A DNA stretch of 64,000 nucleotides, taken from positions 7,201-71,200 of the forward strand of contig VGEN01000001.1 in assembly GCA_016869285.1 (NCBI GenBank), given 5' to 3'. Of this stretch, positions 34,464 to 53,481 are shown piece after piece. Source of the stretch: Alphaproteobacteria bacterium (GTDB taxonomy: Bacteria > Pseudomonadota > Alphaproteobacteria > SHVZ01). Each line of letters starts with the position of its first letter. The first letter of the stretch is position 1. Under the pieces are notes generated by a model. The model did not search any database and was not told the origin of the DNA. It saw only the letters and a program-made list of their open reading frames with translations. The position numbers were made by a program, and so were the translations under genes.

Positions 34464-35522
34464 TCACTCGGCCGCCTTGACGCCTCTCGGCGTGCGCATC
34501 GCTTCGAGCCCGCGGAACTCGACGAAGCGCGTCATTGCCGCCCAGAGGTGGTCGCCGTAAAGGAACGGCTCGAACGGCGCGATGCCCGGCAGCGGCAACG
34601 GTACGATCACCGCGTCGACACGCGGCTCGTAGAAAAACGGGATCGAGAAGCGCTCGCGGTCCGGCCCGATGACTCGGTGCTCGGTCGCCTTGATCCGCCC
34701 GCCGGTCCAGCGTTCGAGCACACCGCCGAAATTGACCGCCAGCGTGCCTTCGGTCGGCGGTACGTCGATCCACTCGCCGCTCGCCGTGCGCGCCTGCAGC
34801 CCTTCGATCCCGTCTTGCGCGAGAAGCGTGACGAATCCTGAGTCGACATGGGCACCGCCGATCAGGTTACGCCGCCGGCCCTGGTGATCGACCAGGATCG
34901 CGCTCATGTCGCCTCCGACGAAGGACTCGGGCGGGCGCACCGGGTAGCGGATCAGGCGCAGCGTCGAGTTGCCGCCGGCAAAGGCAGCGTCGAAGTGCGC
35001 CTCGGCAAGACCCAGGCCGCGAGCAACCGATGCCATCAGCAGGCGCCCGAGCCGTTCCATGCCGCGGTAGTACTGCGCCACATCGGCGCGCCAGCCCGGA
35101 AGTTGCTTCTCCTCCGGCAACGGGGTCGGCTCGGTCAGAGGATCGCTCGGATCGGGGAGGAAGGCCGGATCGGCGACGTCCGGCCCCATGTCGATGCCTT
35201 CCTTGTAGGTCATCGCGCCGTTCTGAAGCGGAAACCAGCCGTGATAGATGTTGGGCTGTGCCGGATCGAACTTTCGCCGCCACAAGCGGCGCTTGATCGG
35301 CTCCGGCAGCGCGAAGACCCGAAGGAGACCGGCACGCACCGCGGCGCCATGCGGGATCTCGGAAGGCAGCCCCGAGATCGCCAGGAACCCGACCTCGCCG
35401 GCGGCCGACAAGATGCGCAGGTCCGTCTCCTGTCGGAGCCGCGACGGCGGGCCCAACAATGGCCCGATGTCGATGGTCGGGATCACACGCGACAGTCGAG
35501 GCGCGGAGGCAAGCAAAGTCAA
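34464..35522 (-). CDS. 2-oxoglutarate/Fe(II)-dependent dioxygenase (isopenicillin-N-synthase-like)
   Basis: 352 aa; HxD...H facial triad (AHVDSG ... TEHRV) and C-terminal RxS-like 2OG-binding region. Confidence 0.7.
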   Translation of the reverse strand: MTLLASAPRLSRVIPTIDIGPLLGPPSRLRQETDLRILSAAGEVGFLAISGLPSEIPHGAAVRAGLLRVFALPEPIKRRLWRRKFDPAQPNIYHGWFPLQNGAMTYKEGIDMGPDVADPAFLPDPSDPLTEPTPLPEEKQLPGWRADVAQYYRGMERLGRLLMASVARGLGLAEAHFDAAFAGGNSTLRLIRYPVRPPESFVGGDMSAILVDHQGRRRNLIGGAHVDSGFVTLLAQDGIEGLQARTASGEWIDVPPTEGTLAVNFGGVLERWTGGRIKATEHRVIGPDRERFSIPFFYEPRVDAVIVPLPLPGIAPFEPFLYGDHLWAAMTRFVEFRGLEAMRTPRGVKAAE

Positions 35523-35687: not shown

Positions 35688-37355
35688 ATGACCGACAAGC
35701 TTCACCCGATCATCGAGAAGGCTGGCCGCGAATTCGCTGACGGCAAGCTCGGCCGCAGAGAGTTTCTGCGGATTGCAGTTTTGCTCGGCGTCGCCGCGCC
35801 CACCGCCTATGGCATGGTCGGCCTTGCCGCGCCGGCAATGGCCCAGGGAGCGCCAAAGAAGGGCGGCACCATCCGCCTTGGCATGCGCGTGCAGGACATA
35901 TCGAGCCCGCACACCTATTCCTGGATCGAGTCCGCGAATTCGGCCCGCCAGACCCTCGACTACATGGCTGTCACCGGCATCGACAACGTGACCCGGCCGT
36001 CGCTGGTGCAGAAGTGGGAAGCCACTCCCGACCTCAAGACCTGGACGTTGCAGCTCCGCCGCGACGTCAAGTGGCGGAAGGGTCGCCAGTTCAACGCCGA
36101 CGACGCGATCTGGAACCTGAAGCGGGTGCTCGACGACAAGACCGGCTCCTCCGTCGTCGGCCTGCTCAAGGGCTTCATCCTGACCGAGTTCGATGACGGC
36201 CAGAAGGACGCCAAGGGCAACCCGCGCAAGTCGGTCAAGCTCTGGGACGCGAATGCGATCCAGAAGGTCGACGATTTCACCGTGAAGCTCAACGGCCAGA
36301 CCGCCAACCTGGCGATCCCGGAGGCGCTCTATCACTATCCGCTGCTGATCTGCTCGCCCGAGGATGGCGGCAAGTTCGGCATCGGCAGTGACGGCACGGG
36401 CGCCTACGAGCTCGTCGAGCACGAGGTCGGCAAGCGCTCGCTCTACGTCGCCACCAAGACCGCCCACTGGAGCGGCATGGGCCCGAATGTCGACCGCTTC
36501 GAGATCATCGATCTCGGCGACGACGCGGCGGCGCAGGTCTCGGCGCTCGCCTCCAAGCAGGTCGACATGATCTACCAGGGCGCGATCTCGACCCTGCCGA
36601 CGGTCGAACGGCTGCCGCATGTCCAGGTCAACACGGTCGACAGCGGCTATACTGCCGTCGCCCGCACGCATCCGATCAAGCCATTCGACGACAAGCGGGT
36701 GCGCCAGGCGCTGCGTCATGCAACCGATACCGAGGCGGTGCTCAAGGCCGCCTATCGCGGTCTCGGCAAGCCTGGCGAGCACCATCACGTCGCCCCGGTG
36801 CATCCGGAGTACGCGAATATCGGCTTCATGAAGCAGGATATCGCCAAGGCGAAGGCCCTGCTGGCCGAGGCCGGTCACCCGAACGGCATCGACTGCCAGA
36901 TCGATTGCCGCCCCCAGCCGGACTGGGAACTCCTGGCGGTCCAGACCATGGTCGAGCAGTGGAAGGCAGCCGGCATTCGCGCCAAGATCAACGTGATGCC
37001 CTCGGCCCAGTACTGGGAGAACTGGACCAAAGTCCCGTTCGGCTTCACCACCTGGGCACACCGCCCGCTCGGCACCATGGTCCTCGGTCTCGCGTATCGT
37101 TCGGGCGCAGCCTGGAACGAATCCGCCTGGTCGAATGCCGAGTTCGACAAACTGATCACCGAGGCGGAAGGCTATCTCGATGTTGAGAAGCGCCGCGCCG
37201 TGATGGCCAAGATCCAGCGCATCATGCTCGACGAGGGCCCCGCCGTCGTCCCGCTGTGGCGTGCGGTCTTCAACTACTCGGACAAGAAGATCAAGGGCTA
37301 CAAGATCCATCCGAGCATCTACATCGACATCAAGGACCTCTGGATCGACGCCTAA
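35688..37355 (+). CDS. ABC transporter substrate-binding protein, family 5, Tat-exported
   Basis: 555 aa; twin-arginine signal GRREFLRIAVLLGVAAPTAYG...AMAQ. Confidence 0.85.
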   Translation: MTDKLHPIIEKAGREFADGKLGRREFLRIAVLLGVAAPTAYGMVGLAAPAMAQGAPKKGGTIRLGMRVQDISSPHTYSWIESANSARQTLDYMAVTGIDNVTRPSLVQKWEATPDLKTWTLQLRRDVKWRKGRQFNADDAIWNLKRVLDDKTGSSVVGLLKGFILTEFDDGQKDAKGNPRKSVKLWDANAIQKVDDFTVKLNGQTANLAIPEALYHYPLLICSPEDGGKFGIGSDGTGAYELVEHEVGKRSLYVATKTAHWSGMGPNVDRFEIIDLGDDAAAQVSALASKQVDMIYQGAISTLPTVERLPHVQVNTVDSGYTAVARTHPIKPFDDKRVRQALRHATDTEAVLKAAYRGLGKPGEHHHVAPVHPEYANIGFMKQDIAKAKALLAEAGHPNGIDCQIDCRPQPDWELLAVQTMVEQWKAAGIRAKINVMPSAQYWENWTKVPFGFTTWAHRPLGTMVLGLAYRSGAAWNESAWSNAEFDKLITEAEGYLDVEKRRAVMAKIQRIMLDEGPAVVPLWRAVFNYSDKKIKGYKIHPSIYIDIKDLWIDA

Positions 37356-37449
37356 GGCGTGGTCCCAGCGGCTTCGCCCTGCGGACGTACGACACGTCCG
37401 CAGGGCCGCCGGCCCCTTTTCAGTCCTTTAACGCCTACCGCCCGGAGCG

Positions 37450-38391
37450 GTGATGCTGCGATATTCGGCGAAGCAGCTACTGAACATGGCGCTGACGCTG
37501 TTCGCGGTGTCGTTCCTGGTCTTCGCCTTGAACGAGCTGTCGCCGGGCGACGTCACACGCAAGATCCTCGGCCCCTATGCCTCGCAGAGCCAGGTCGACC
37601 ACCTGACCCGAGAGATGGGTTTGGATCGCCCGGCCCTTGTCCGCTACTTCGAATACATGGGCAAGGCCCTGACAGGGAACTTCGGCAACTCGATCTACTA
37701 CCGCCAGCCGGTCTCGGAGCTCATGTGGGACCGTCTCGGCAACACGCTGCTGCTCGCCGCCATCTCCTTTGCCGTCATCGTACCGATTTCGGTCCTGCTC
37801 GGCGTGCTGGCCGGCATGCGCGAACGCGGCTGGTTCGACCGCGCCGTCTCGATCTTCTCCTCGATATGCGCCTCCATCCCGGAATTCGCCATGGGCGTCT
37901 TCCTGCTCGCCATCTTCGTCGTCTGGCTCGGCGTGCTGCCAGGCACCTCGCCGCTCCGCGGCGATGCCGGCTGGGCGATCTGGATGCAGTTCGTCCTGCC
38001 GGTGCTGGTCGTCACCTTCTATGACGCCGGCTATCTGATCGCGATGGTGCGCTCCTCGATGGTCGAGGTCATGCGCCAGCCCTATATCCGGACCGCGCTG
38101 CTCAAGGGCAATTCTTTCCGCAATGTCGTTGCCAAGCACGCGCTCCGCAACGCGCTGATCACGCCCTTCACCGTGATCCTGCTGCAGCTCAACTACCTCG
38201 TCTCCGGCCTCGTCGTCGTCGAGACGCTGTTCGCCTATCCCGGCTTCGGCCGGCTGATGCTCGAAGCGGCGCTGGCCAAGGACATCGCGGTGCTCGAGGC
38301 CGGCACTCTGGTCGCCGTCAGCGTCACCATGCTGACCCAGCTCTTCGGCGATCTCGGCTACATGGCTCTGGATCCGAGGATCCGCGTATGA
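37450..38391 (+). CDS. ABC transporter permease, DppB-like
   Basis: 313 aa TM protein, ...ALDPRIRV C-terminus. Confidence 0.85.
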   Translation: MMLRYSAKQLLNMALTLFAVSFLVFALNELSPGDVTRKILGPYASQSQVDHLTREMGLDRPALVRYFEYMGKALTGNFGNSIYYRQPVSELMWDRLGNTLLLAAISFAVIVPISVLLGVLAGMRERGWFDRAVSIFSSICASIPEFAMGVFLLAIFVVWLGVLPGTSPLRGDAGWAIWMQFVLPVLVVTFYDAGYLIAMVRSSMVEVMRQPYIRTALLKGNSFRNVVAKHALRNALITPFTVILLQLNYLVSGLVVVETLFAYPGFGRLMLEAALAKDIAVLEAGTLVAVSVTMLTQLFGDLGYMALDPRIRV

Positions 38392-39296
38392 CCGAGGTCA
38401 GTCACGACCTGGCGGGCGGACGCGTCGGCAGCTTCCGCGGCACGGACGCCGCCGCCGCGTCGCGCGGCTGGGCACGCAAGATCTACGATCTTCTCACCCG
38501 TTCCCCGATCGGCACGATCGGCGCCGCGATTCTGCTGACCTGGACGATCCTCGCCGTCTTCGCGCCGTGGATCGCCCCCTACTCGCCGACCAAGATCGAT
38601 CCGGCGCTGATTGCCGATCCCTACCCCTCCGCCCAGCACTGGCTCGGCGTCGATCATCTCGGCCGCGACATCCTCTCACGCCTGATCTGGGGTGCCCGCA
38701 CCGTGCTGACCGTGGCACCGACCGCCGTACTCGGCGCCGTGATCCTCGGCACCTTCCTCGGGCTTCTCGCCGGGTATCGCGGCGGCATCGTCGATGCCGT
38801 CATCATGCGGATCGGCGACACGCTACTGGCCTTCCCCAAGATCATCCTCTACCTGATCATCATCGCCAAATTCGGTGCCTCGGCCTTCAACATCATCGCC
38901 GTGATCACGCTCTCCTCGGCGCCGATCATCGCGCGCATCGTCCGCGGCGTGACGCTCGACATCAAGAACCGCGACTATGTCGCCGCCGCTCGCATGCGCG
39001 GCGAGAGCGCCTTCTTCATCATGTTTGTCGAGATCCTGCCGAACGCTCGAGGCCCGCTGATCGTCGATTTCTTCCTGAGGCTGGGATATACGACGATCGC
39101 GATCGGCGTGCTTGGCTTCCTCGGCGTCGGGCTGCCGCCGCCGGACCCCGACTGGGGCGGCATGGTCAAGGAAGCCTACGGCATGATCTTCGTGTGGCCG
39201 CACATGACGATCATCCCGTCGCTCGCCATATCCTCGCTCGTCATCGGCGCCAACTTCCTTGCGACCGGGCTTCGCGAAGCCTCGCTCGATGGCTGA
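38388..39296 (+). CDS. ABC transporter permease, DppC-like
   Basis: 302 aa, 6 TM, overlaps upstream stop by 4 bp. Confidence 0.85.
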   Translation: MTEVSHDLAGGRVGSFRGTDAAAASRGWARKIYDLLTRSPIGTIGAAILLTWTILAVFAPWIAPYSPTKIDPALIADPYPSAQHWLGVDHLGRDILSRLIWGARTVLTVAPTAVLGAVILGTFLGLLAGYRGGIVDAVIMRIGDTLLAFPKIILYLIIIAKFGASAFNIIAVITLSSAPIIARIVRGVTLDIKNRDYVAAARMRGESAFFIMFVEILPNARGPLIVDFFLRLGYTTIAIGVLGFLGVGLPPPDPDWGGMVKEAYGMIFVWPHMTIIPSLAISSLVIGANFLATGLREASLDG

Positions 39297-41343
39297 AATC
39301 CTCGCGTTCGAGCATGCCTCGATCGCCTATGACGGGCGTGCCGGCCGCCAGATCATCCTGAACGACGTCGATTTCTCGATCGGCGAGGGCGAAGCGCTCG
39401 GCCTCGTCGGCGAGTCCAGCTGCGGCAAGTCCACCGTGGCGCTCGCCGCCATGCGTTACCTTCCGCGCGGCATGAGCGTCATCGACGGCCGCATCCGCGT
39501 CGAAGGCCGCGACATCGCCGGGCTTACCGACCGCGAGCTCTCGCGCATCCGCGGCAACCGGATCGCCATGGTCTACCAGGACCCGATGTCGAGCCTGAAC
39601 CCGGTGATGCCGATCGGCAAGCAGCTCATGGAAGTCCCGCTGCTTCATGGCGAGACCGACGAAAACGCCGCGTTCCGCCGTGCCGTCGCGATGCTCGAAG
39701 AAGTCCGCCTCCCCGCCGCCGCGGCGATGATGGAGCGCTACCCGCACCAGCTCTCCGGCGGCCAGCAGCAGCGTGTCGTCATCGCCATGGCACTGATGGC
39801 GAAGCCCGCACTCCTGATCATGGACGAGCCGACCACCGGCCTCGACGTCACCATCGAGGCCGCGATCCTGGAGCTGGTCCGCGAGCTTCGCGCCAAGTTT
39901 GGTACGGCGATCCTGTTCATCTCGCACAACCTCGGCACGGTCGCGCGCATCTGCGACCGAATTGGCGTGCTCTATGCCGGGCGCATGGTCGAGACCGGCC
40001 GGATCGGTGCGGTCTTCCGCTCCCCCTCACACCCCTACACACGCGGCCTGCTCGGCGCGCTGCCGCGCCTGAGCGGCGGAGGACGCCGCGGCCGGCTTCG
40101 ACCGATCGAAGGCACCATCGCCGCCGCCGATCGCGCCCGGCCGGGTTGCGCCTTCGCGCCGCGCTGCAGCTTTGCCGCCCGCCACGAATGCGAAGAGCGT
40201 CCGATCCTGATGGTCGAGCTCGGCGACGGGCATCTTGCCCGCTGCGCGCGGCTCGACGCCGTCCGCGCCAGCGCCGAAGACGATCGTGCGGCCGCAGCTT
40301 CTGCAGCCACGGATGGTGCTCCCATCGTCCTCCGTGTCCGCAAGCTCAGCAAGGAGTACAAGCTGACCGGACTCTTCGGCGGCGAGAAGAAGGGCGTCGT
40401 CCGCGCCGTGACCGATGTCGATCTCGATGCCCGCGCCGGCGAAACGCTGGCGATCGTCGGCGAGTCGGGCTGCGGTAAGTCGACGCTCGCCCGCATCGTC
40501 TCGGGCCTGCTCGCCGGTACCTCGGGCGAGGTCAAGCTCGGCGAGACCGATCTGGCGAAGCTCGAAGTCGATGACCGCCCGCCCGAGATTCGTCGTCAAA
40601 TCCAGATGGTGTTCCAGAATCCGGACTCAACGCTGAATCCCAGCCACTCCATCGCCTACGCCCTGTCGCGGCCGCTGCGCATGCTGCGCAACCTTGCCAG
40701 CGGCGACGCCAAGACCGAAGTGTCGAAGCTCCTGGCCCAGGTGCGGCTACCGGTTGAAGTGGCCGAGCGCATGCCGCACCAGCTCTCCGGCGGCCAGCGC
40801 CAGCGGGTGGCCATCGCCCGCGCGCTCGCCGGCAAGCCGAAACTCGTCGTCGCCGATGAGCCGGTCTCCGCCCTCGACGTCTCGGTCCAGGCGGCGATCC
40901 TCAATCTGCTCGGCGAGCTGCTCGAGCAGTCGCGGCTCGGCCTCGTGCTGATCTCGCACGACCTGGCCCTGGTCCGGCACATGGCAGACTGGGTCGCGGT
41001 CATGTATCTCGGCCGCGTCGTCGAGTACGGGCCGGTCGCGCAGGTCTTCAGCCCGCCCTTCCATCCCTACACCGAAGCGCTGCTGCGGGCCGCACCGACG
41101 CCCGATCCCGATGCGGCGCCGCCGACGGCGGCGCTTGAAGGCATGATGCCGAGCCCGACCGAGATCATCGTCGGCTGCGCCTTCGCCAGCCGCTGCCCGA
41201 GCCGTATCGCCGAGCAGTGCGATACGACGCCGCCGCCGGTGCGCCAATTCGGCGAGCACCGGATCGCCTGCCACCTGGAGCTTGGCCGTCAGGCGCCTGC
41301 AGAACGCGGCGGCCGCACCGAAATCCGGTCGTCGATCTCGTAA
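39289..41343 (+). CDS. tandem (duplicated) ABC ATP-binding protein, DppD-DppF fusion
   Basis: About 685 aa with two complete NBDs: Walker [10 protein letters not shown] and GESGCGKST, signatures [12 protein letters not shown] and [12 protein letters not shown], Walker B IMDEPT and VVADEP. Confidence 0.85.
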
Positions 41344-41684
41344 TAGTCGCCGGCATCCTCGGCGAAGATCTGCAACGTTGTCCTGAGGCCGGTCGGTTCG
41401 TCCAGGCTGCCGGCGGCGACCGAAACCATGTCCGTGCCGAGCCGTTCCCAGAACAGGCTCGAACCGCAGCCGCGGCAGAAGCCGCGCCGGGCGAGCTCCG
41501 AGGAACGGAACCAGGCGACGTCGCCCTCGACCTTCAGGTCGACCTTGGCGACGCGTGTGTACGCGCCGACATGACCGTGCCAGCGGCGGCATTGGCTGCA
41601 ATGGCAGACCACGACGTTCCTCAAGCCACCGCTCAGGCGGAAGCGGATCGCGCCACAAAGGCACTGCCCCTCGATTTCGCTCAT
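41289..41684 (-). CDS. GFA family protein (glutathione-dependent formaldehyde-activating enzyme / CENP-V-like zinc protein)
   Basis: 131 aa from internal ATG; Cys pattern CLCGAIRF...CHCSQCRR...CRGCGS typical of GFA domain. Confidence 0.7.
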   Translation of the reverse strand: MSEIEGQCLCGAIRFRLSGGLRNVVVCHCSQCRRWHGHVGAYTRVAKVDLKVEGDVAWFRSSELARRGFCRGCGSSLFWERLGTDMVSVAAGSLDEPTGLRTTLQIFAEDAGDYYEIDDRISVRPPRSAGA

Positions 41685-42283
41685 GCTCGTGTCTCCGTCA
41701 TCGTCGCGTAGACTTCGACATTGCCGGTCCAGCAATAGAGCGCCAGCAGCGGCTCGTCGCTCGTCCGCATGGCATGGCGAACCATCGGCGTGTGATGGAT
41801 GACCGAGCCAGGCGGCCTCATTCGCCAGCCCTCCCCTTCCCGCCACCATTCCGCGTTACCGGCGACGACGTGATAGATTTCCTCGGCCGGATGCGCGTGG
41901 TCCGGGTAGTGCATCTCCGGCCCCAGCAGCAGCAGGCCGACGAGCAGATCGGTGCTCTCGACCGGGCGTCCAGGCCCGATCAGCTCGACATAGCCGTAAC
42001 GGTCGTCGTAGCCGGGCCCCATGCCCTCGACCGAGTAGTTCGGATTCTGCAGCCAGGTCGCCAACGGCTCGACCGCCGCAAAGGCCTCGGCGACTTCGGC
42101 CAGCGGCCCGCGACGGCCGAGTTCGACCGCCTGCCCGACGAATTTCGCCACCGGTTTGCGGCCAGCCCGGCCGAGTTGCAGATCCCGGTCCTTGACAACG
42201 GCGATGCGCGCGCTTGCAACCGCGAGCGGACCTTCGCTTGCTTCGCGATAGACCGCCTCGATCGCGCGCAGCAGCGTCAGCAT
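41681..42283 (-). CDS. cupin domain protein (possible DddL/DddQ/DddW-like DMSP-lyase-type cupin)
   Basis: 200 aa from internal ATG; cupin metal motif HYPDHAHPAEEIYHVVAG...H; ATGA overlap with GFA gene. Confidence 0.5.
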   Translation of the reverse strand: MLTLLRAIEAVYREASEGPLAVASARIAVVKDRDLQLGRAGRKPVAKFVGQAVELGRRGPLAEVAEAFAAVEPLATWLQNPNYSVEGMGPGYDDRYGYVELIGPGRPVESTDLLVGLLLLGPEMHYPDHAHPAEEIYHVVAGNAEWWREGEGWRMRPPGSVIHHTPMVRHAMRTSDEPLLALYCWTGNVEVYATMTETRA

Positions 42284-42285
42284 TG

Positions 42286-43101
42286 TCAGGTGATCTGCGC
42301 CAAGCCTCGCGCCTCGGCGGCCTGCGCCCAGTCCTCGGTGATCTGGTAGCCGGACTCGGGAATGCGCGCGAAGCCGAGGATGCAAAGATCGTCGCGCAGC
42401 GCCGCCTGGCCCGGATCGTCGCCGAAGCTGGTGAGCGTCTCGCCGAGACGCTCCACGATGTCGGATGGCGCGCCTTCCGAGGCCATGAAAGCCGGAATCG
42501 GCACAACGTCTGTCGAGGCTATGATGCGAGTGCGCCCCGCCACCTCCGGCCAGTGCCGGCGCAGCAGCGCATAGGCGAAGGAGTCGAGGGGGCCGACATC
42601 GGTTTTGCCTTCGACGATCGCCTCGACCATCAGGCGCGGCGTCCTCAAGGGTCCGACGATCTCGCGATAGAGCATCTTGGTCACGCCCTTGCGGTAGGAA
42701 AGCAGATGGTGCCGCGGCGCGTTGTAGCCCGAATGCGAGTCCGGGATCGTGTAAGCGAAACGATGGCCGAAGGTGTCTTCCAGCGTCTTGAACGGCGCGT
42801 CGTCGCGGACGACGAAGTGCGAGCAGTAGACCGCTCGTCCCCGGGCATAGGCAGCGCTCGGGATCGGCGCGGCGACGACCTGGTGGATCGCGCCGTAGCG
42901 CATGAAGGGCCAACCGCACATGAAAGTGCAGGCGAGGTCCTTCCTGGACCACAGCTCGTCGAGCGAGGCCGGGAAGGCATGGTCGATCACCGTCATGTCG
43001 AAGCCCGACCGCTCCTGGAGCCAGGCGAAGAGCCGCTTCCACGCCGCGGCCGCGCCCGGCGCGACCGAGTACATGCGGGCATTGGCGATGAGATCGCTCA
43101 T
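42286..43101 (-). CDS. PhnD/SsuA-like periplasmic-binding-protein-fold protein lacking a signal peptide
   Basis: 271 aa from internal ATG MSDLIANARMYSVAP...; type-II PBP-like composition, no N-terminal hydrophobic signal; ATGA overlap with DMGDH paralog 2. Confidence 0.55.
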   Translation of the reverse strand: MSDLIANARMYSVAPGAAAAWKRLFAWLQERSGFDMTVIDHAFPASLDELWSRKDLACTFMCGWPFMRYGAIHQVVAAPIPSAAYARGRAVYCSHFVVRDDAPFKTLEDTFGHRFAYTIPDSHSGYNAPRHHLLSYRKGVTKMLYREIVGPLRTPRLMVEAIVEGKTDVGPLDSFAYALLRRHWPEVAGRTRIIASTDVVPIPAFMASEGAPSDIVERLGETLTSFGDDPGQAALRDDLCILGFARIPESGYQITEDWAQAAEARGLAQIT

Positions 43102-45509
43102 CCGCGCTGGCGACCGCCATTGGCGTCGAAGAGCGGCTGGGTCTGCACGATCGCCAGGCAGGCTTTGCCGAAGATCAGCACCGAGAGCTCGGCGCCGTCC
43201 TTGGCGTAGTCGGCATGGACATAGGCCATCGCCATGCTCTTGCCGGCCCAATGCGCATAGCCACCCGAAGTCACCTGGCCGACCGCTTCGCCGTTCCGCA
43301 TCACGCTCTCATAGCCGACGACTTCGGTATCGGTATCGACAATCAGCGGCACCAGCTTCTTCTTCGGTGCTGCCGCTCGGTCTTTATGCGCCGCCTCACG
43401 GCCGATGAAGTCCGGCTTGTCATAAGCGACGAAACGGTCGAGGCCACTTTCCATCGGCGTGTAGTCCGGACGGAACTCGCGGAAGAAGGCGCCATAGGCC
43501 TTTTCCAGGCGCAGCGACATCAGCGCACGGTTGCCGAAATGGCGGAGGCCGAGATCCTTGCCGGCCCCGACCAGCGCCTCGTAGAGCGTTACCTGATAGT
43601 CGGGCGTCACCCAGATCTCGTAGCCGAGATCACCGGTGTAGCTGGCACGGAGCACCGTCGCCGGCGCCAGGCCGACAACCATCTCGCGCGCGGCGAAGAA
43701 CTTGAAGGCCTGGGCCGAGACATCCTCGAAGACGAGGCGCTGGAGCAGCTCGCGCGACTTCGGGCCGGCGATCATGAAGCCGGTCAGCGCATGCGGCAGC
43801 GGGCGGATATAGGTTCCGGCCGGCGGCGGATGCTTCTCGAACCAGCGCATGTGGTAGATCTCGGCGACGCCGGAACCGATCATCAGGAAACGGTCCTCGG
43901 CGAGCCTCGCCACCGAGAAGTCGCCGATGATCGTGCCGCGCGGGTTCAGCATCGGCGCCAGCACCATGCGGCCCGGCTTCGGCATCTTGTTGGCGAGCAT
44001 CCGGTTGAGCCAGGACTCGGCCTCCGGACCTACCACCTCGTATTTGCCGAACCCCGAGATCTCCATGAGACCGACGGCGTTGCGGATCGCGTGGCACTCC
44101 TCCCTGACGATCGGGAAAGCGTTGGATCGGCGATAGGTCGGGTTCTCGTAGGGCTCCATGCCTTTCGGCGCATACCAGAGCGCGACCTCGAGGCCGAAAT
44201 TGGCGCCGAACACGGCGCCTGCCTCCTTGAGCCGGTCATAGACCGGCGTGCGGCGCAGCGGGCGTGCGGCCGGCATCTCCTCGTTCGGATAAGCGATGCG
44301 GAAGCGCCGGCTGTAATTCTCCGGCACCTTGATCAGCGTATACTGGTGTGTGGCGAACTTGCCGAAGCGCGCTACGTCCATGGCGAAGATGTCGGAGCCT
44401 GGATCGCCCTCGACCATCCAGCGCGAGAGCGCAAGGCCGACGCCGCCCCCTTGCGCGAAGCCGGCCATGACGCCGCAAGCCGACCAGTAGTTTCGCAGGC
44501 CCCGGACCGGCCCGACCAGCGGGTTGCCGTCGGGGGCGAAGGTGAAGGGGCCGTTGACCACCTTCTTGATCCCGGCGCGGCCGACCGCCGGGAAATGCTT
44601 GAAGCCGATCTCGAGATGCGGCGTCAGACGGTCGAGATCGTCCGGCAGCAGCGCCATCGAGAATTCCCAGGGCGTGGTGTGCGGCGACCACACCCGGCAA
44701 TCCTTCTCATAGGTGCCGAGCAACACGCCCTTACCTTCCTGGCGCATGTAGATCTCGCCGAAATAATCGGTGGTCGGCAGGACCTCGCGGCCATGCGCCA
44801 CGACCTCGGGGATCTCCTCGGTCACCACATACATGTGCTCCATTGCCAGCACCGGCAGCTCGATGCCCGCCATGCGGCCGACTTCGCGCGCCCAGAGGCC
44901 GGCAGCGTTGACGACATGCTCGGCATGCACATTGCCCTTGTCGGTGATCACGTCCCAGGAACCGTCGCGGCGCTGCTTCAGCGCCGAGACCTGGGTAAAG
45001 CGATGCACCTCGGCGCCCGCCTTGCGCGCGGCGATGGCATAGGCGTGAGCCACGCCGTTCGGGTCGACATGGCCGCCATCGAGGCGATGCAAGGCGCCGA
45101 CGAACTGCCCAGGGTCGAGCAGAGGATTGAGTTTCCTGGCCTCGGCCGGCGAGATCAGATGCGTCTCCATGCCGAGATACTTGGCACGCGAGTGCATGAG
45201 CTTGAGGTTGTCGAAGATCTCGTCGGTAGCGGCGACGACCATGTTGCCGGTGGCGTGGATGCCGCAGCTCTGGCCGGAGATCCGCTCGATCTCGCGATAG
45301 AGGTCGATCGTGTACTTCTGCAGCCGCGAGACGTTGGCGTCCGAATTGTAGGTATGCACGCTGGCCGCCGCGTGCCAGGTCGAACCCGAGGTGAGCTCGT
45401 GCTTCTCGAACAGCGCGATGTCGGTCCAACCGAGCTTGGTCAGATGGTAGAGAATGCTGGCGCCGACGACCCCGCCGCCGATCACGGCCACACGATACTC
45501 GGTCTTCAC
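43098..45509 (-). CDS. dimethylglycine dehydrogenase / sarcosine dehydrogenase family protein, paralog 2
   Basis: 803 aa; VAVIGGGVVGASILYHLT FAD fold plus GcvT-like C-terminal domain; colinear with paralog 1. Confidence 0.85.
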   Translation of the reverse strand: MKTEYRVAVIGGGVVGASILYHLTKLGWTDIALFEKHELTSGSTWHAAASVHTYNSDANVSRLQKYTIDLYREIERISGQSCGIHATGNMVVAATDEIFDNLKLMHSRAKYLGMETHLISPAEARKLNPLLDPGQFVGALHRLDGGHVDPNGVAHAYAIAARKAGAEVHRFTQVSALKQRRDGSWDVITDKGNVHAEHVVNAAGLWAREVGRMAGIELPVLAMEHMYVVTEEIPEVVAHGREVLPTTDYFGEIYMRQEGKGVLLGTYEKDCRVWSPHTTPWEFSMALLPDDLDRLTPHLEIGFKHFPAVGRAGIKKVVNGPFTFAPDGNPLVGPVRGLRNYWSACGVMAGFAQGGGVGLALSRWMVEGDPGSDIFAMDVARFGKFATHQYTLIKVPENYSRRFRIAYPNEEMPAARPLRRTPVYDRLKEAGAVFGANFGLEVALWYAPKGMEPYENPTYRRSNAFPIVREECHAIRNAVGLMEISGFGKYEVVGPEAESWLNRMLANKMPKPGRMVLAPMLNPRGTIIGDFSVARLAEDRFLMIGSGVAEIYHMRWFEKHPPPAGTYIRPLPHALTGFMIAGPKSRELLQRLVFEDVSAQAFKFFAAREMVVGLAPATVLRASYTGDLGYEIWVTPDYQVTLYEALVGAGKDLGLRHFGNRALMSLRLEKAYGAFFREFRPDYTPMESGLDRFVAYDKPDFIGREAAHKDRAAAPKKKLVPLIVDTDTEVVGYESVMRNGEAVGQVTSGGYAHWAGKSMAMAYVHADYAKDGAELSVLIFGKACLAIVQTQPLFDANGGRQRG

Positions 45510-45553: not shown

Positions 45554-46513
45554 TCACTCCGACCGCGCAACCGCTCCGGCATCGCCGGCCCCGCGCCGGC
45601 CGCGACGGCGGCCGCCCGCCCCCTCCCCCGCAGCAGCCGGGTCACGGTTGGCGCGGAGCCAGGCCATGCAGTCGGGGTCGAAGCCATTCAGCGTATTGGC
45701 GGCGCGGATCGCATCCATATCCTCCTTGTGCAGCGGGTTCATGATGGCGCTGGTCATGCCGATGGCGGCGGCCATCGACAGGAAATGCGCATTCATGACC
45801 CGGCGGTTCGGGATGCCGAAGGAGATATTCGAGGCACCGCAGGTGGTGTTCACCTTGAGCTCCTCGCGCAGCCGGCGGACGAGGCGAAAGACCTGGGCGC
45901 CGGCCGAGTTGAGCGCGCCGATCGGCATCACCAGCGGGTCGATGACGATGTCGGCAGCCTTGATGCCGTGATCCGCGGCACGCTCGACGATCTTCTTGGC
46001 GACGGCGAAGCGAACATCGGGGTCGTAGCTGATGCCGGTCTCGTCGTTGGAGATCGCAACCACCGGCACATTGTACTTCTTCACCAGCGGCAGGATGGTC
46101 TCGAGCCGGTCTTCCTCGCCGGTTACCGAATTGACCAAGGGGCGCCCCTTGGCGACCGCGAGACCGGCCGCCAGCGCCGCCGGCACGGAGGAGTCGATCG
46201 AGAGCGGCACGTCGACCAGCGACTGCACCAGCTCGATGGTCTTGGCCAGCAGCGGCGGCTCGGTGAGGTTGGGATCGACCGCGGTGACGCCGGCATTGAC
46301 GTCGAGAACCAGCGCACCGGCCGCGACCTGGGCCAGCGCGTCGGCGGTCACGGTCGAGAAGTCGCCGGCCATCATCTCGGCCGCAAGCTTCTTGCGGCCG
46401 GTCGGGTTGATACGCTCACCGATCACGCAGAATGGCTGATTGAAGCCGATGATTGCGGTCTTGGTTGCTGAATGCAGGACAGTCTCGGTCACGGAATTCC
46501 CCTTCCCACCCAC
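45554..46513 (-). CDS. pterin-binding methyltransferase (methyltetrahydrofolate:corrinoid methyltransferase, MtrH/AcsE/MtgA-like)
   Basis: N-terminal IIGERINPTGRKK motif typical of pterin-binding (DHPS-like) methyltransferases; ORF-track start is GTG; an internal GTG at 46492 overlapping the MTHFR stop is an alternative. Confidence 0.75.
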   Translation of the reverse strand: MGGKGNSVTETVLHSATKTAIIGFNQPFCVIGERINPTGRKKLAAEMMAGDFSTVTADALAQVAAGALVLDVNAGVTAVDPNLTEPPLLAKTIELVQSLVDVPLSIDSSVPAALAAGLAVAKGRPLVNSVTGEEDRLETILPLVKKYNVPVVAISNDETGISYDPDVRFAVAKKIVERAADHGIKAADIVIDPLVMPIGALNSAGAQVFRLVRRLREELKVNTTCGASNISFGIPNRRVMNAHFLSMAAAIGMTSAIMNPLHKEDMDAIRAANTLNGFDPDCMAWLRANRDPAAAGEGAGGRRRGRRGAGDAGAVARSE

Positions 46514-47382
46514 GAACCTCGTCCAGTCAGCCAGGCCGTCGCGGCGGCTAGCCCACCGAAAGCATACACATGCAGCTGCCGGATCAGCCGCGCCTCGCCG
46601 GCAAGGACTCTACGCTCAATCGCGCGGACATGCGCCTCGGGCTCATAGTTGCCGAGCAGCGAGGTCAGCTGAGTGCCGCGCTTGAGCGCGAAGGACATCG
46701 AGGTCCGCACGCCGCACAGCGCCGCGAATTTGAGAAGCCGCGTCATGGTCGTCGGCCCGGCGACGCCGAGATGGATCGGCAGGCTCACCCCTTCATCGCG
46801 AAGGCCGTTGGCCCAGGCGATGGCCAGGCTCGGATCGAAGCCGAATTGCGTGACCAGCCGGACATCGATGCCGGTGCGCTTGGCGAAGTCAATCTTCCAA
46901 CGCAGCGCCTCGACGATGACGGTCGGCGCGATATCGGGCGAGCCCTCCGGGTGCCCGGCGACGCCGATGTGACGGATTCCGTATTGCTCGAACAATCCGG
47001 TCGACAGCACATCCATCGACGAGCCGAAGGGGCCGAGCGGTCTGGCTATGTCGCCGCCGATGATGAGCGCGTCGTCGATCGCTGCCGCCTCCGCCATCGC
47101 GCGCAGACGCTCCTCGATCTCCTCCAGGCTCCTCAGACGACGGCAGGCGATGTGCGGGACGGGGCGAAGGCCGGCCTCGGCGAGGATGCGGCAGGCGCTG
47201 CCCCACTCCGAAACCGGCGTGTCGCCGCCGTCGACCAGATAGATCCGGGTCGCCTCCGGGATCGCCTTCAGCGGCGACGGTTCCTTGATGACGCCTTTGG
47301 GCGACAGCTCGATCGAGGCCGGCAGTGCCCGGCTATCCTGTCGGCCTGCGATCTCGACCATCGGTCCTCGAACCTCGCTCAT
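46489..47382 (-). CDS. methylenetetrahydrofolate reductase (MetF-like)
   Basis: 297 aa TIM-barrel flavoprotein pattern of MTHFR family (..PHIACRRL..; ..LVTQFGFD..). Confidence 0.75.
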   Translation of the reverse strand: MSEVRGPMVEIAGRQDSRALPASIELSPKGVIKEPSPLKAIPEATRIYLVDGGDTPVSEWGSACRILAEAGLRPVPHIACRRLRSLEEIEERLRAMAEAAAIDDALIIGGDIARPLGPFGSSMDVLSTGLFEQYGIRHIGVAGHPEGSPDIAPTVIVEALRWKIDFAKRTGIDVRLVTQFGFDPSLAIAWANGLRDEGVSLPIHLGVAGPTTMTRLLKFAALCGVRTSMSFALKRGTQLTSLLGNYEPEAHVRAIERRVLAGEARLIRQLHVYAFGGLAAATAWLTGRGSWVGRGIP

Positions 47383-49282: not shown

Positions 49283-50380
49283 TCATCGAGCTTCGGCGGC
49301 GAGGCCGCGGGCGATGCGGTCGAGCAGGAGTCGCGACTGCGCCACCACCATCTCACGCCAGGAATCGTGGTCGGGCGCGAAAGCACGCAGCAAACGCTGC
49401 TTCACCGACTGCACCGAGGCGTCGTGCCAGTCGTTCCTGCCCCGCTTGTGGAGCACATGCTCGGCACGCAGCGAATCGATCACCTCCTCATGCGGCACGG
49501 TGCCGTATTCGAAGCTGACATAGGCCGAGTGCAGGCCGCAACTCTTCTCCCAGAGCTCCGAGCTCAGGCCCTGCTGCGGCGGCGTCGCCGCCTTACCTTC
49601 GCGCTGGATCGTCATCGCCGGACCGATCCAGCGTTGCAGCCGGTCGCGGCCGGGATGCGCCGGATCGCCGGAATAGATCGGCTCGCAATAGCCGAACGGG
49701 CCGGCGCCGGTATGGAAGTCGATGGCGGCGACCAGCTTGCGGCCCCTGAGGTCGTAGTCGGCGAGGATCGCCTCCATGGTCTTGCGCGACCAGGTCGGGC
49801 CGGTGCCGCCGTAGAACCAGCCATCCGGCCGGGCGTATTGACCGCCTGACTGTGCGATCGCCAGCGCCGCACGGCCATGCTTGTCGCCATAGGACTTGAT
49901 GCGCGCATCCGCGGCCTTCCATGTCGCCTCGCTCGCATCGCGCGGCACGAAGTCGTCAGCGAGCTCTTCATAGCCGTGATTGACCGGAAGCGGTTTCGAG
50001 AAGTCGGCAAAGTTACGGTTAATGTCGACATTGTCCTCGTTGGTGCGGCGGAGCCAGGCGGTGCCGTAGGGATTTACGGCATGGATCAGCAGCGCGGCAA
50101 CGTCCCCATAGCGCGCGATGTCGAGATCGAGCAGCGCATCGACCTGCGCACCCGAGCCGCAGAACAGCTCCGGCCCATGCACGCCTGAAGTGACCACCAG
50201 CACCGACTTGGCCTTCGGGTTGCCGAGAAGGGCGACATCGGTCGCCAGCTCCTCGCCGTCCGGCCCGGTCATCGGGTGCTTGCAGGCGCGCGTTTTGACG
50301 CCGGCGAGATCGGCGGCAAGCTGAAACTTGCGGCGGGCTTCGGCATAGGTGAGCGCGAAGCGGTTGTTGACGCTGAGCAT
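49283..50380 (-). CDS. M14-family zinc carboxypeptidase-like protein (DUF2817 / succinylglutamate-desuccinylase-aspartoacylase-like)
   Basis: HxxE zinc motif HGPE, NRNF arginine motif, downstream zinc His (DFHTG); start at internal ATG MLSVNNRF. Confidence 0.65.
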   Translation of the reverse strand: MLSVNNRFALTYAEARRKFQLAADLAGVKTRACKHPMTGPDGEELATDVALLGNPKAKSVLVVTSGVHGPELFCGSGAQVDALLDLDIARYGDVAALLIHAVNPYGTAWLRRTNEDNVDINRNFADFSKPLPVNHGYEELADDFVPRDASEATWKAADARIKSYGDKHGRAALAIAQSGGQYARPDGWFYGGTGPTWSRKTMEAILADYDLRGRKLVAAIDFHTGAGPFGYCEPIYSGDPAHPGRDRLQRWIGPAMTIQREGKAATPPQQGLSSELWEKSCGLHSAYVSFEYGTVPHEEVIDSLRAEHVLHKRGRNDWHDASVQSVKQRLLRAFAPDHDSWREMVVAQSRLLLDRIARGLAAEAR

Positions 50381-50382
50381 GA

Positions 50383-52374: not shown

Positions 52375-52384
52375 GGATTTGCTT

Positions 52385-53209
52385 TCAGATCGAAGGAAAA
52401 GGCCAGACGCGAGGGAACAGAGCGCAATCCATTCTGTCGCCGTGCTTCAGGCCCGGATCGGATGTGGGGATCGCGACCTCGCCGGAATGCACGCAGTAGC
52501 GCGCATCGTCGCCGGTCCAGCGCGTCGCCAGCGCGCGGCGCCGATGCGTCATCGAGGCGTTGCCCGGCGCTCCATGGACGATCATCGCCTGGAAGACGAG
52601 GCAGTCGCCCGGCTCCATCTCATAGGCGACGATGTCGTAGGCCGAGCGGTCGACATCGATATCCGGCATCGCCTCCAGCGCGCGCTCGCGATAGGGGCTG
52701 CCATCGCTGAAGTGGTAAGGCAGGAAAGTGCGGTTCCACTCATGCGAGCCGCGGACATACTCTACTGCGGTCGGCTTCGGGACGGGATCGAAGGGAAGCC
52801 AGATCGAGCAGACCTGGCGGCCCGAAACCGCCCAATAGGGCTGGTCCTGGTGCCAGGGCGTGCGCTCGGCCGTTCCTGGCTCCTTCACCAGGAGCTGGTC
52901 GTAGAAGAAGTTGACCTTGGACGCGCCCATGACGCGCGCGGCGATCTGAGCCGCCGGCGACTCGAAGACGAAGCGGCGGAAACGCGGCAACCGCTGCCAC
53001 ATATCGAGATCGCCGAAGAAGCCGCCGGGGTTGCCGGGCTTGGTATAGCTCTCTCCATGCCGGCCGGGCTTCGCCATCGCCTCGGCGACGGCCGCCGCCA
53101 TGAAATCGATCCAGTCGCGATCGAACATGCGGCGGAGGCACACGACGCCGTCGCGCTCATAGGCGGCAACCTCGGCCTCGCCGATCGGGCTCAGCGGGTC
53201 GCGGTTCAT
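52385..53209 (-). CDS. phytanoyl-CoA dioxygenase (PhyH) family Fe(II)/2OG oxygenase
   Basis: 274 aa; HxD motif in WHQDQPYW and distal His (IVHGAPGN region). Confidence 0.75.
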   Translation of the reverse strand: MNRDPLSPIGEAEVAAYERDGVVCLRRMFDRDWIDFMAAAVAEAMAKPGRHGESYTKPGNPGGFFGDLDMWQRLPRFRRFVFESPAAQIAARVMGASKVNFFYDQLLVKEPGTAERTPWHQDQPYWAVSGRQVCSIWLPFDPVPKPTAVEYVRGSHEWNRTFLPYHFSDGSPYRERALEAMPDIDVDRSAYDIVAYEMEPGDCLVFQAMIVHGAPGNASMTHRRRALATRWTGDDARYCVHSGEVAIPTSDPGLKHGDRMDCALFPRVWPFPSI

Positions 53210-53214
53210 CGGTT

Positions 53215-53390
53215 CGTCTTCGTGTCCCCTCTCCCGCGAAGCGGGGGAGGGCTAGGGAGGGGGCGAGCGCAGCGTGGCGAACGCCGTCCGCATGACGACC
53301 GACGCCATATGCCACTCTCAGTCACGTCGGCAGGAACTCCTCGCTTCGTTCGCCCCCTCCCCGCTCTCGCCCGCTTCGCGGGAGAGTAGG
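53215..53390. repeat. REP/RIME-like palindromic element, copy C
   Basis: Left arm TCGTGTCCCCTCTCCCGCGAAGCGGGGGAGGG (25-mer identical to copy B right arm) and inverted partner ...GCCCGCTTCGCGGGAGAG about 70 bp downstream. Confidence 0.7.
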
Positions 53391-53481
53391 TACGATCACG
53401 GAAGCAATGCATCCGAACGGATCGGACGCTAGCCTAGGAACCGGGCCGGGCGAGCGCAAGGCGCGGACACCCTGGGTGGAA

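Follow-up and report, generated by a model that had tools for sequence, protein, structure and literature searches.

A signal-less PhnD/AioX-family protein encoded beside a DddQ-like cupin: an uncharacterized, predicted cytoplasmic offshoot of a family of transporter and sensor proteins

PhnD/AioX-type binding proteins are commonly regarded, and by automatic annotation labeled, as receptors that serve ABC importers or sensor kinases from outside the cytoplasm. The 64-kb window (the whole stretch of DNA analyzed here) carries a gene for a protein of this family that lacks a recognizable export signal, which raises the question of what such a protein does when it is kept inside the cell. The binding-protein fold is also used by enzymes, such as THI5, MqnA/MqnD, prephenate dehydratase, and HisG.

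As judged by its GC content at codon positions 1, 2, and 3 (0.64, 0.50, and 0.86, respectively), which matches the coding pattern of the window (66.5% GC overall), the 271-aa ORF reported in the preliminary description of this DNA is a real gene. Reading the junctions on the minus strand confirmed the close packing that had been described: the ATG of the gene overlaps the TGA of the 803-aa dehydrogenase ORF (GGATGAGC), and a 2-nt spacer (ACCTGAcaATG) separates the gene from the 200-aa cupin ORF. A second ATGA overlap (GCATGAGC) joins the cupin ORF to that of a GFA-family protein, the last gene of the run (Table 1). The domains found in the upstream ORF bear out its earlier assignment to the DMGDH family. 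Upstream in the same run lie genes for a methyltransferase-like pterin-binding protein and for a divergent methylenetetrahydrofolate-reductase-like protein, the latter syntenic in close relatives. Promoter and terminator scans from 40.8 to 49.6 kb gave matches at chance level only.

Table 1. Positions of the genes discussed in the text, numbered within the 64-kb window
Feature	Position	Strand	Matches and remarks
Signal-less PhnD/AioX-family protein gene, 271 aa	42286..43101	minus	Subject gene
DddQ-like cupin (200 aa) of the Pfam DMSP_lyase family	41681..42283	minus	PF16867, E 3e-35, 121.7 bits
GFA-family (glutathione-dependent formaldehyde-activating enzyme-like) protein	41289..41684	minus	PF04828, E 1e-20; final gene in the run
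DMGDH-like FAD dehydrogenase with a fused GcvT folate domain, 803 aa	43098..45509	minus	DAO + FAO_M + GCV_T + GCV_T_C
Methyl-tetrahydrofolate:corrinoid methyltransferase-like pterin-binding protein	45554..46513	minus	NF005719, 380 bits (cut-off 259); Pterin_bind
Divergent methylenetetrahydrofolate-reductase-like protein	46489..47382	minus	PF02219, 26.4 bits (cut-off 24)
Opp/Dpp-type ABC importer	35688..41343	plus	SBP_bac_5, ABC_tran x2, oligo_HPY; converges on GFA gene
Family-5 binding protein with Tat leader	35688-37355	plus	Part of Opp/Dpp-type importer
Permeases	37450-38391 and 38388-39296	plus	Parts of Opp/Dpp-type importer
Fused double ATPase	39289-41343	plus	Part of Opp/Dpp-type importer
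2OG-Fe(II) oxygenase	34464..35522	minus	PF03171; divergent from ABC importer
Second DMGDH paralogue	32015-34441
Mandelate-racemase-family gene	23035-24165

The N terminus of the protein, MSDLIANARMY, leads directly into the first strand, and the highest 10-residue Kyte-Doolittle hydropathy within residues 1 to 40 is 0.95, compared with 2.4 by the same measure for the family-5 binding protein of the window, which has a twin-arginine leader (RREFLR...). The sole in-frame upstream extension of the ORF, from a TTG at 43251, is rich in Arg and Gly, is not hydrophobic, and lies inside the dehydrogenase gene. The starts of homologues at 46 to 100% identity all fall no more than a few residues from that of the protein, and among the best 150 matches from a search of 1.84 billion proteins, the full-length ones measure 260 to 285 aa and align from residue 1 to 13. 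An N-terminal extension was absent from all 83 aligned homologues and from the full-length members of these best 150. Hydropathy, the upstream frame, and the homologue starts thus revealed no Sec or Tat signal peptide and no lipobox, and they ruled out a longer ORF hiding one. The lack of a signal peptide, noted earlier for this single protein, holds family-wide and therefore excludes a better upstream start; the preliminary description had left room for one that would reveal a signal peptide, and there is none. The protein is therefore predicted to be cytoplasmic, like its full-length relatives, and for a binding-protein fold without an export signal, a non-transport role is the sensible reading.

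Pfam PF12974 (Phosphonate-bd) matched residues 18 to 249 with 94.8 bits (gathering score, 27), and the structure model (pLDDT 92.5) has a two-lobed type-II fold that can be superposed on solved members, the best structural matches being AioX, ArrX, PhnD, PtxB, and HtxB. The PhnD-type fold proposed earlier is thus correct. The accompanying analogy to THI5, ThiY, and SsuA was not supported, since we found no profile or close structural similarity to the THI5/NMT1, ThiY, SsuA group; THI5/NMT1, MqnA/MqnD, and ThiY-like proteins are cytoplasmic enzymes and offer a precedent for proteins of type-II fold that have no signal and take no part in transport. Scores against the NCBIfam models TIGR03431 (PhnD equivalog; 42.7 bits, cut-off 261.1) and TIGR01098 (subfamily; 42.9 bits, cut-off 112.05) do not qualify, and these alignments reach only the C-terminal two thirds of the protein. 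Unlike PhnD, PtxB, and HtxB, the ABC receptors for phosphonate, phosphite, and hypophosphite, it has neither a signal peptide nor PhnC/PhnE partners, and according to the HMM alignment it is missing the acidic residues responsible for binding the amine of 2-aminoethylphosphonate (PMC5908839). It is ∼20% identical to AioX, ArrX, and ArxX (PDB 6esk, 6esv, 6eu7, and 6x6b), which are periplasmic arsenite/arsenate sensor-binding proteins. AioX and ArrX are exported and are paired with a sensor kinase and a response regulator beside arsenic oxidoreductase genes, whereas the protein studied here has none of these attributes: no gene for a kinase, an AioR-type regulator, or a molybdoenzyme was found in its operon or in the scanned set of called genes.

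To our knowledge, the characterized members of the PhnD/AioX structural branch are all binders or sensors, and none is an enzyme. The published AioX pocket comprises Y88, C106, Y131, S161, S163, H192, and D210 (PMC5908839). Transferred by HMM alignment, the only source of the predicted pocket geometry, these residues correspond to P44, C62, Y92, S122, S124, P155, and D173. Five of the seven are kept (C62, the arsenite-ligating cysteine, Y92, S122, S124, and D173), whereas AioX Tyr88 and His192 are replaced by prolines that are invariant in the family, and the loss of two bulky side chains suggests a larger cavity. Across 83 sequences, there is no variation in the Ser-x-Ser helix cap and the Tyr oxyanion cradle (S122, S124, and Y92), nor in a Cys, three His, two Asp, and several Arg that are potentially catalytic.

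In a sample of 80 loci, we grouped relatives at ≥60% identity to the protein as clade A and a sister clade at 46 to 56% identity as clade B. Of the 24 clade-A loci, 21 have a DddQ-like cupin gene downstream on the same strand, with one further divergent case; no cupin was detected nearby in the other two. No other neighbor of the PhnD-like gene is as conserved as the cupin gene. The gap between the two genes is often 2 to 38 nt. In locus L082, the order is PhnD-like, FA_desaturase, and cupin, with 4-nt overlaps, and in L081, a three-gene unit containing the PhnD-like gene stands solitary amid housekeeping genes, without a transporter. Of the 24 clade-A loci, 11 carry a GFA-family gene downstream.

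The closest solved structures to the cupin of the window are those of DddQ (5cu1, E 1e-20, and 4la2), and it keeps the H-x-H-x3-E-x-Y metal/catalytic motif and the distal His, HAHPAEEIY...H aligning with both structures. The lyase activity that DddQ shows toward DMSP is considered promiscuous, its native function is not known, and a role in betaine catabolism has been proposed (Lei et al., 10.1101/161257, 10.1101/168930). Physiological cleavage of DMSP to DMS and acrylate by the window cupin may be regarded as a candidate activity only, given that promiscuity has been argued even for authentic DddQ. The published neighborhood of roseobacter dddQ combines the DddQ cupin with DMGDH-like and mandelate-racemase-like genes (Lei et al., 10.1101/161257, 10.1101/168930). 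The window likewise contains a DddQ-like cupin gene, a DMGDH-like gene, and a mandelate-racemase-family gene but differs in having a PF12974 gene, which is absent from the authentic dddQ loci of Shimia (L089) and Octadecabacter (L090). The PhnD-like/cupin pairing belongs to another branch of the DddQ-like cupins, one from Alphaproteobacteria of freshwater and soil. Since cupins of the same family also occur without a PhnD-like gene (L083, L084, and the two roseobacter loci), the cupin does not need it. Plasmid matches to the cupin (Sinorhizobium pSymA and Gemmobacter) cover about half its length and have unrelated or unannotated contexts.

In clade B, the fixed neighbor is an ornithine-cyclodeaminase (OCD)-family gene (46 of 50 loci), and the loci sit inside histidine and S-methyl-ergothioneine utilization clusters; neither a DMGDH-like gene nor a DddQ-like cupin was found as a neighbor in this clade, and no homologue of OCD, FA_desaturase, urocanase, or HAL was found in the 64-kb window. 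At a 95% threshold, there is no alignment position at which the cupin-linked and the OCD-linked clade are fixed for different residues, and at 80% only conservative swaps appear. The predicted pocket is alike in both clades, in keeping with a single class of ligand that serves different enzymes. Six over-long proteins among the best 150 matches were scanned against Pfam. Apparent fusions of the PhnD-like domain to the C terminus of MttB (P0352), to TctC (P0376), and to the C terminus of OCD (P0388) proved to be frameshifted, wrong-frame gene calls; as miscalls from error-prone assemblies, they indicate adjacency only, and no credible fusion of the PhnD-like gene to any partner was found. The family comprises ∼200 clusters at 50% identity, mostly from Alphaproteobacteria, and is annotated everywhere as [quoted passage not shown] In the literature searched, we found no description of a signal-less PhnD/AioX-like family or of its OCD pairing.

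The gene is thus an uncharacterized non-transport offshoot of a transporter/sensor family, and because the family is cytoplasmic and wired to soluble enzymes, its ABC transporter label is almost certainly wrong. As to function, we tentatively favor the reading that this member of the PhnD/AioX branch acts in the cytoplasm and not in transport, binding a small ligand and partnering soluble catabolic enzymes, in this locus the cupin. Pointing in this direction are the fold with its five AioX pocket residues, the cytoplasmic location, the lack of PhnCDE traits, the recurrence of the cupin in clade A, the context-independent pocket, and the non-enzymatic nature of the characterized branch members. 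The analysis shows the fold, the cytoplasmic location, the conservation of the pocket throughout the family, and the conserved neighbors; we infer that the protein binds a ligand rather than catalyzing a reaction, that the cupin is its partner, and what kind of ligand it takes. The protein would close like a Venus flytrap around a small metabolite, either anionic or zwitterionic, whose oxyanion or carboxylate head group may be gripped by Ser122, Ser124, and Tyr92 at a helix N terminus and surrounded by Cys62, Asp173, His123, His41, and Arg9. The ligand would be captured for, or presented to, soluble catabolic enzymes and not a membrane transporter, possibly with the protein acting as a subunit. 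In the lineage of the window, the functional partner would be the DddQ-like cupin immediately downstream, and the coupling to the DMGDH-like dehydrogenase may reflect one betaine/N-methyl-amine catabolic operon, a lineage-specific arrangement. Against the cupin partnership stand the same-family cupins that lack a PhnD-like gene, the two cupin-less clade-A loci, and the lack of a credible fusion.

The invariant Cys/His/Asp/Arg set fits an enzyme equally well, and the main rival to the binder reading is accordingly an enzyme built on the binding-protein fold, which we consider somewhat unlikely. Cys62, together with the His, Asp, and Arg residues of the cleft, would catalyze a step common to both genomic contexts. 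A candidate substrate would be a carboxylate with an electrophilic carbon, for example, the alpha,beta-unsaturated acids that arise from DddQ- or HAL-type eliminations.

It is also conceivable, if improbable, that two orphan enzyme types, the DddQ-like cupins and the highly conserved OCD-family enzyme, cannot do without proteins of this type as their second component, be it a subunit that binds the substrate or a true co-enzyme. If so, soluble catabolic systems made up of a binding protein plus an enzyme would form a previously unrecognized class, and knowing the ligand would show which substrate DddQ-type cupins natively use. The steady partners are unsolved too, both the DddQ-like cupin and the uncharacterized OCD-family enzyme beside histidine and S-methyl-ergothioneine catabolic genes. 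As the pocket looks the same in the cupin and OCD contexts, the ligand of one small soluble protein could inform both pathways, and it bears on whether the binding-protein fold was recruited as a soluble enzyme accessory.

We regard as quite unlikely that the protein handles a very small species in the cytoplasm, as its binder, buffer, or chaperone, and not an organic substrate, in the service of neighboring metallo- or C1-handling enzymes. Candidate ligands would be a metal with a synergistic anion, as in transferrin or FbpA, or a small oxyanion or hydrated carbonyl at Cys62, such as formaldehyde hydrate, formate, sulfite, or an arsenite-like species. However, the replacement of two AioX pocket residues by prolines suggests a ligand larger than arsenite, the OCD-family enzymes that are the fixed partner in clade B need neither metal nor C1 units, and no arsenic, iron-uptake, or metal-homeostasis genes lie beside the gene.

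The preliminary description had proposed that the protein delivers or presents a substrate specifically to the adjacent DMGDH-family dehydrogenase. The ATGA translational coupling in the window is in line with this idea, as are the recurrence of the order DMGDH, PhnD-like, cupin, and GFA in close relatives and in a 65%-identical Hyphomicrobiaceae MAG (L012) and the status of the DMGDH-like gene as a published conserved neighbor of roseobacter dddQ (10.1101/161257), seen also in L089. The gene pair does recur, but the dehydrogenase is not the conserved partner: only 8 of 21 informative clade-A loci, and 0 of 44 clade-B loci, have a DMGDH-like gene directly upstream. Moreover, the roseobacter DMGDH-dddQ clusters contain no PF12974 gene, and the second DMGDH paralogue of the window has no PhnD-like neighbor. 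Together, these observations leave dedicated delivery to the dehydrogenase very unlikely.

The window holds no PhnC/PhnE-type system, its ABC systems being only of the Opp/Dpp type, each with its own family-5 binding protein, but the earlier statement that no cognate permease or ATPase is nearby is inaccurate for the window, since one such importer is adjacent and converges on the GFA gene. This importer adjoins the PhnD-like/cupin pair in L001 to L008, L011, L012, L018, L054, and L082, and 8 of 18 loci in clade A and 2 of 37 in clade B have ABC genes no more than 4 kb away. In Rhizobium johnstonii 3841, plasmid pRL12 encodes a 36%-identical homologue within the series hutC-hutH-(OpuAC-type binding protein)-OCD-PhnD-like-permease-permease-ATPase. 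Homologues thus keep company with ABC permeases in the pRL12 branch but not generally, as L081 illustrates. Although this importer adjacency and the position of the pRL12 homologue between transporter genes would suit an ordinary exported receptor of a neighboring ABC importer, with a missed signal peptide or unconventional export, that explanation is largely refuted and scarcely credible, given the homologues without N-terminal extension, the upstream in-frame sequence, which falls within the dehydrogenase gene and does not resemble a signal, the matching binding protein that each neighboring transporter already has (SBP_bac_5 with a Tat leader in the window, an exported OpuAC-type protein in pRL12), and the many loci without any transporter. 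The 2OG-Fe(II) oxygenase gene also recurs with the module, being found beside the ABC system in L082, in L083, and in close relatives.

The PhnD-like ORF lies in a compact minus-strand run (see the table of features). Its codon-position GC (0.64/0.50/0.86 at positions 1/2/3) matches that of real genes of the 66.5% GC window. On the minus strand, its ATG overlaps the TGA of the dehydrogenase gene (GGATGAGC), a 2-nt spacer (TGAcaATG) separates it from the cupin gene, and a second ATGA overlap (GCATGAGC) joins the cupin and GFA genes. The preliminary description, which had the ORF overlap the stop codon of the 803-aa dehydrogenase gene as ATGA and the cupin gene start 2 bp downstream, was thus accurate on both junctions. 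The ABC ATPase gene (ends 41343, +) and the GFA gene (ends 41289, -) converge and overlap by ~55 nt at their 3' ends, and no structure resembling a terminator was seen around this overlap (41289-41343).

Features of the window around the PhnD-like gene and of the wider catabolic island
Feature	Coordinates	Strand	Remarks
Sarcosine oxidase soxBDAG	15017-20159		
MttB methyltransferase homologue 1	20231-22030	-	non-Pyl
RACo-type reductive corrinoid activator	24162-26189		
Homocysteine-S-methyltransferase-domain protein	26107-27534		
PF13769 'virulence factor' protein	26194-26493		
DddP-like creatinase-N/M24 protein	27614-28906	+	NCBIfam DddP (DMSP lyase), 414.8 bits, below the 600 cut-off
Corrinoid protein	28891-29646		
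DUF1638 protein	29568-30299		
MttB methyltransferase homologue 2	30299-31852	+	non-Pyl
DMGDH-architecture paralogue	32015-34441	-	
GFA protein	41289-41684	-	131 aa; GFA (Pfam)
DMSP_lyase cupin	41681-42283	-	200 aa; PF16867, E 3e-35 (Pfam)
PhnD-like protein	42286-43101	-	271 aa; Phosphonate-bd, PF12974 (Pfam)
DMGDH-like dehydrogenase	43098-45509	-	803 aa; DAO + FAO_M + GCV_T + GCV_T_C (Pfam), dimethylglycine-dehydrogenase architecture
Methyl-THF:corrinoid methyltransferase-like protein	45554-46513	-	upstream in the run of the PhnD-like gene
Divergent MTHFR-like protein	46489-47382	-	upstream in the same run
DUF2817 protein	within 49283-54678		downstream of the operon
S9 prolyl-oligopeptidase-family protein with PD40 repeats	within 49283-54678		downstream of the operon
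PhyH-family dioxygenase	within 49283-54678		downstream of the operon
GbcA-like Rieske oxygenase	within 49283-54678		glycine betaine monooxygenase, 434.6 bits against a 670 cut-off
Mandelate-racemase-family enzyme			in window
2OG oxygenase			in window
Opp-type ABC importers			two in window

In the model, the N-terminus of the PhnD-like protein (MSDLIANARMY) runs directly into the first beta-strand, and the maximal 10-residue hydropathy of residues 1-40 is 0.95, against 2.4 for the Tat leader of the window's family-5 binding protein. Among 771 database homologues, the best 120 are nearly all 262-296 aa long, and all 83 aligned sequences from genome loci start no more than a few residues from the ANARMY motif. 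An exhaustive profile search of 1.84 billion representatives returned 203 clusters below E 1e-30; among the best 150, full-length clusters measure 260-285 aa and the match starts at residue 1-13. Lack of a signal peptide, already noted from the sequence, thus characterises the family as a whole. The sole in-frame upstream start yields an Arg/Gly-rich, non-hydrophobic extension inside the dehydrogenase gene, which, with the family-wide common start, rules out a start-codon artefact. These results establish a conserved cytoplasmic protein.

AlphaFold2 gave a confident model (pLDDT 92.5, pTM 0.90), and Foldseek ranked AioX/ArrX on top (TM ~0.8), followed by PhnD/PtxB/HtxB. Likewise, a profile search against PDB sequences gave E values of 5e-29 for AioX and 1e-18 for ArrX but just 1e-5 for PhnD, and the protein scored far under the NCBIfam PhnD cut-offs (equivalog, 42.7 versus 261; subfamily, 42.9 versus 112). 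Together with the PF12974 match (94.8 bits), the structural matches support the PhnD-type binding-protein fold assigned initially and show a member of the AioX/PhnD structural branch that is not a PhnD. The analogy with THI5/ThiY drawn at the same time holds at the superfamily level and not beyond it.

Scanning 185,579 species genomes by pattern yielded 197 confirmed loci, 80 of which were retained for neighbour mapping by tblastn, with the window proteins and representatives of recurrent neighbour clusters as queries. These loci fall into clade A (at least 60% identity to the PhnD-like protein), from freshwater-lake and soil alphaproteobacterial MAGs, Hyphomicrobiaceae included, and sister clade B (46-56% identity), from Bradyrhizobium, Rhodopseudomonas, Nitrobacter, Ferrovibrio, Aliidongia, and others. 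The conserved neighbour of the PhnD-like gene is a DddQ-like cupin gene in clade A or an ornithine-cyclodeaminase-family (OCD) gene in clade B. The cupin gene lay downstream on the same strand within 1.3 kb at 21 of 24 clade A loci, with one further locus having it divergent upstream, and at none of 47 clade B loci. In clade A, the PhnD-like gene is thus nearly always accompanied by a cupin, but the cupin does not depend on it: L083 and L084 have cupins of the window's branch and no PhnD-like gene. Other clade A neighbours were a GFA-family gene (11/24 loci), an Opp-type ABC system within 4 kb (8/18), and an FA_desaturase-family gene between the PhnD-like and cupin genes (6/24). According to precomputed Pfam calls, this last three-gene unit stands isolated amid ribosomal, tRNA-synthetase, and histidinol-dehydrogenase genes at L081; at L082 it has 4-nt overlaps and adjoins a window-type Opp-type ABC system and 2OG oxygenase, with no dehydrogenase beside it. 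The FA_desaturase-family gene (~300 aa, membrane di-iron; L081, 10842-11732; L082, 7090-8004) occupies the same position in L011, L013, L015, L016, L020, L022, L025, and L026; it is missing from the window, and NCBIfam gave just a weak, uninformative match to CrtR.

In clade B, an OCD/mu-crystallin-family gene lay immediately upstream at 46 of 50 loci, mostly with gaps of 9-45 nt, and hut genes were within 4 kb at 31 of 37. At 11 of these 37, upstream genes reached the curated NCBIfam thresholds set for S-methyl thiourocanate hydratase (958.7 versus 880) and S-methyl thiohydantoin desulfurase (545.5 versus 450), with a GST gene between them. This Bradyrhizobium-type five-gene run (desulfurase, GST, hydratase, OCD, PhnD-like) is back to back with hutD-hutU-hutI and lies at ~6.5-10.8 kb in each locus (L030, L045, L049, L050, L053, L055, L059, L060, L062, L063, and L073). 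As the OCD and PhnD-like genes form its tail, two uncharacterised genes are joined to a cluster that NCBIfam names as S-methyl-ergothioneine catabolic. Distant homologues occur on Rhizobium johnstonii 3841 pRL12 (L085), in the order hutC-hutH-(OpuAC-type binding protein)-OCD-PhnD-like-permease-permease-ATPase, and on a Paracoccus saliphilus plasmid (L086), where hutC overlaps the PhnD-like gene and OCD is divergent. The upstream part of L085 (record 810253-822096) holds a sulfate-exporter-family gene, as also adjoins L086, then CoA-transferase, SDR, MaoC dehydratase, hutC, and hutH-like lyase genes. L085 looks like one long operon, and its gene set points to breakdown of a histidine-type betaine by lyase-plus-beta-oxidation-like reactions, in a strain amenable to genetics. 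Apparent domain fusions (P0352, P0376, and P0388 of the protein library) were rejected as Arg/Ala/Ser-rich products of the wrong reading frame, from high-GC assemblies with frameshifts; such over-long proteins would mislead automated domain-fusion analysis.

In AioX, arsenite is bonded to Cys106 in a ligand pocket formed by Y88, C106, Y131, S161, S163, H192, and D210 (PMC5908839). By HMM alignment, with residue spacing checked against the AioX sequence, these map to P44, C62, Y92, S122, S124, P155, and D173. Five of the seven residues are common, the cysteine among them, whereas the aromatic Y88 and imidazole H192 give way to family-invariant prolines (P44 and P155). Where PhnD holds the ligand amine with Glu177 and Asp205, the PhnD-like protein has AioX-type F/Y175 and P203. 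Invariant across 83 sequences are R9, Y11, W21, H41, P44, W51, R53, D55, C62, G63, P65, Y92, R114, T118, S122, S124, G125, N127, R130, G150, P151, T154, P155, D168, G170, P171, D173, H183, and R192. The alignment predicts an oxyanion/carboxylate cradle with a thiol and several basic residues, in what would probably be a larger cavity than that of AioX, with size and geometry inferred from the alignment. Between clades A and B, no position was fixed to different residues at the 95% level, and only conservative changes appeared at the 80% level (e.g., F175/Y, F96/L, and I/V swaps). The pocket is kept across both genomic contexts, and the bound ligand or activity is probably the same in cupin-linked and OCD-linked settings.

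We tentatively propose that the protein is a binder of a small metabolite, anionic or zwitterionic, which it would capture, present, or sense on behalf of soluble enzymes. Speculatively, the common thread could be alpha,beta-unsaturated carboxylates, arising by DddQ-type beta-elimination in one context and by HAL/ergothionase-type elimination to urocanates in the other, together with thiol chemistry (GFA and GST genes). There are precedents both for cytoplasmic enzymes with binding-protein folds and for binding proteins of the sensor type; no description of a signal-less, enzyme-linked AioX/PhnD-family branch was found in the accessible literature. The main alternative, an enzyme of binding-protein fold using the invariant Cys/His/Asp/Arg set, is somewhat less likely. 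A carrier of a small oxyanion, C1 unit, or metal is a lesser candidate. So is delivery specific to the dehydrogenase, the role first suggested: a DMGDH-like gene was immediately upstream at 8 of 21 clade A and 0 of 44 clade B loci, a lineage-specific linkage rather than a conserved partnership. An ordinary exported receptor is essentially excluded for this family, uniformly annotated as an ABC-transporter component.

The closest solved structures to the window cupin are DddQ DMSP lyases (5cu1, E 1e-20; 4la2, 5jso, and 4b29), and its H-x-H-x3-E-x-Y motif and distal His are intact. The Tawfik laboratory reported very low and unselective DMSP-lyase activity for DddQ, DMGDH-like and mandelate-racemase-like genes as conserved dddQ neighbours, and unknown native functions for DddQ and DddP, perhaps in proline-betaine/hydroxyproline-betaine catabolism (10.1101/161257, 10.1101/168930). 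The Shimia sediminis dddQ locus (L089, 7347-13318) has, after DMGDH-like and Zn-ADH genes, two tandem DddQ-like cupins, a small extra Cupin_2 gene, and three mandelate-racemase-family (MR/MLE) paralogues, without a PF12974 gene; this gene content exceeds what has been published. In the Octadecabacter dddQ locus, the cupin is by itself. The PhnD-like protein, not startling by itself, offers an experimentally accessible route to the real role of DddQ-type cupins.

As a whole, the window forms an island of methylated-amine catabolism, which places the PhnD-like gene in a context of betaine/N-methyl-amine degradation in an uncultured freshwater alphaproteobacterium; the closest relatives are MAGs, several with lake sample labels (e.g., Baikal). 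It holds a complete corrinoid-dependent methyl-transfer kit (20231-31852 and 45554-47382) in an apparently aerobic alphaproteobacterium, made up of both MttB homologues, the corrinoid protein, the DUF1638 protein, the RACo-type activator, the PF13769 and homocysteine-S-methyltransferase-domain proteins, the methyl-THF:corrinoid methyltransferase, and the MTHFR-like protein. A DddP-like (M24) protein and a DddQ-like cupin thus occur in one methylamine-catabolic island of an apparently freshwater bacterium; the native functions of both enzyme types are disputed. The cupin and M24 genes are immediate neighbours at L083 (soxG-cupin-M24-MttB). The genes of 49283-54678 are further candidates for betaine or peptide processing. 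The two DMGDH-architecture paralogues, ~57% identical and 9 kb apart, each flank the Opp-type ABC importer/2OG-oxygenase block, and only one carries the PhnD-like/cupin/GFA tail.
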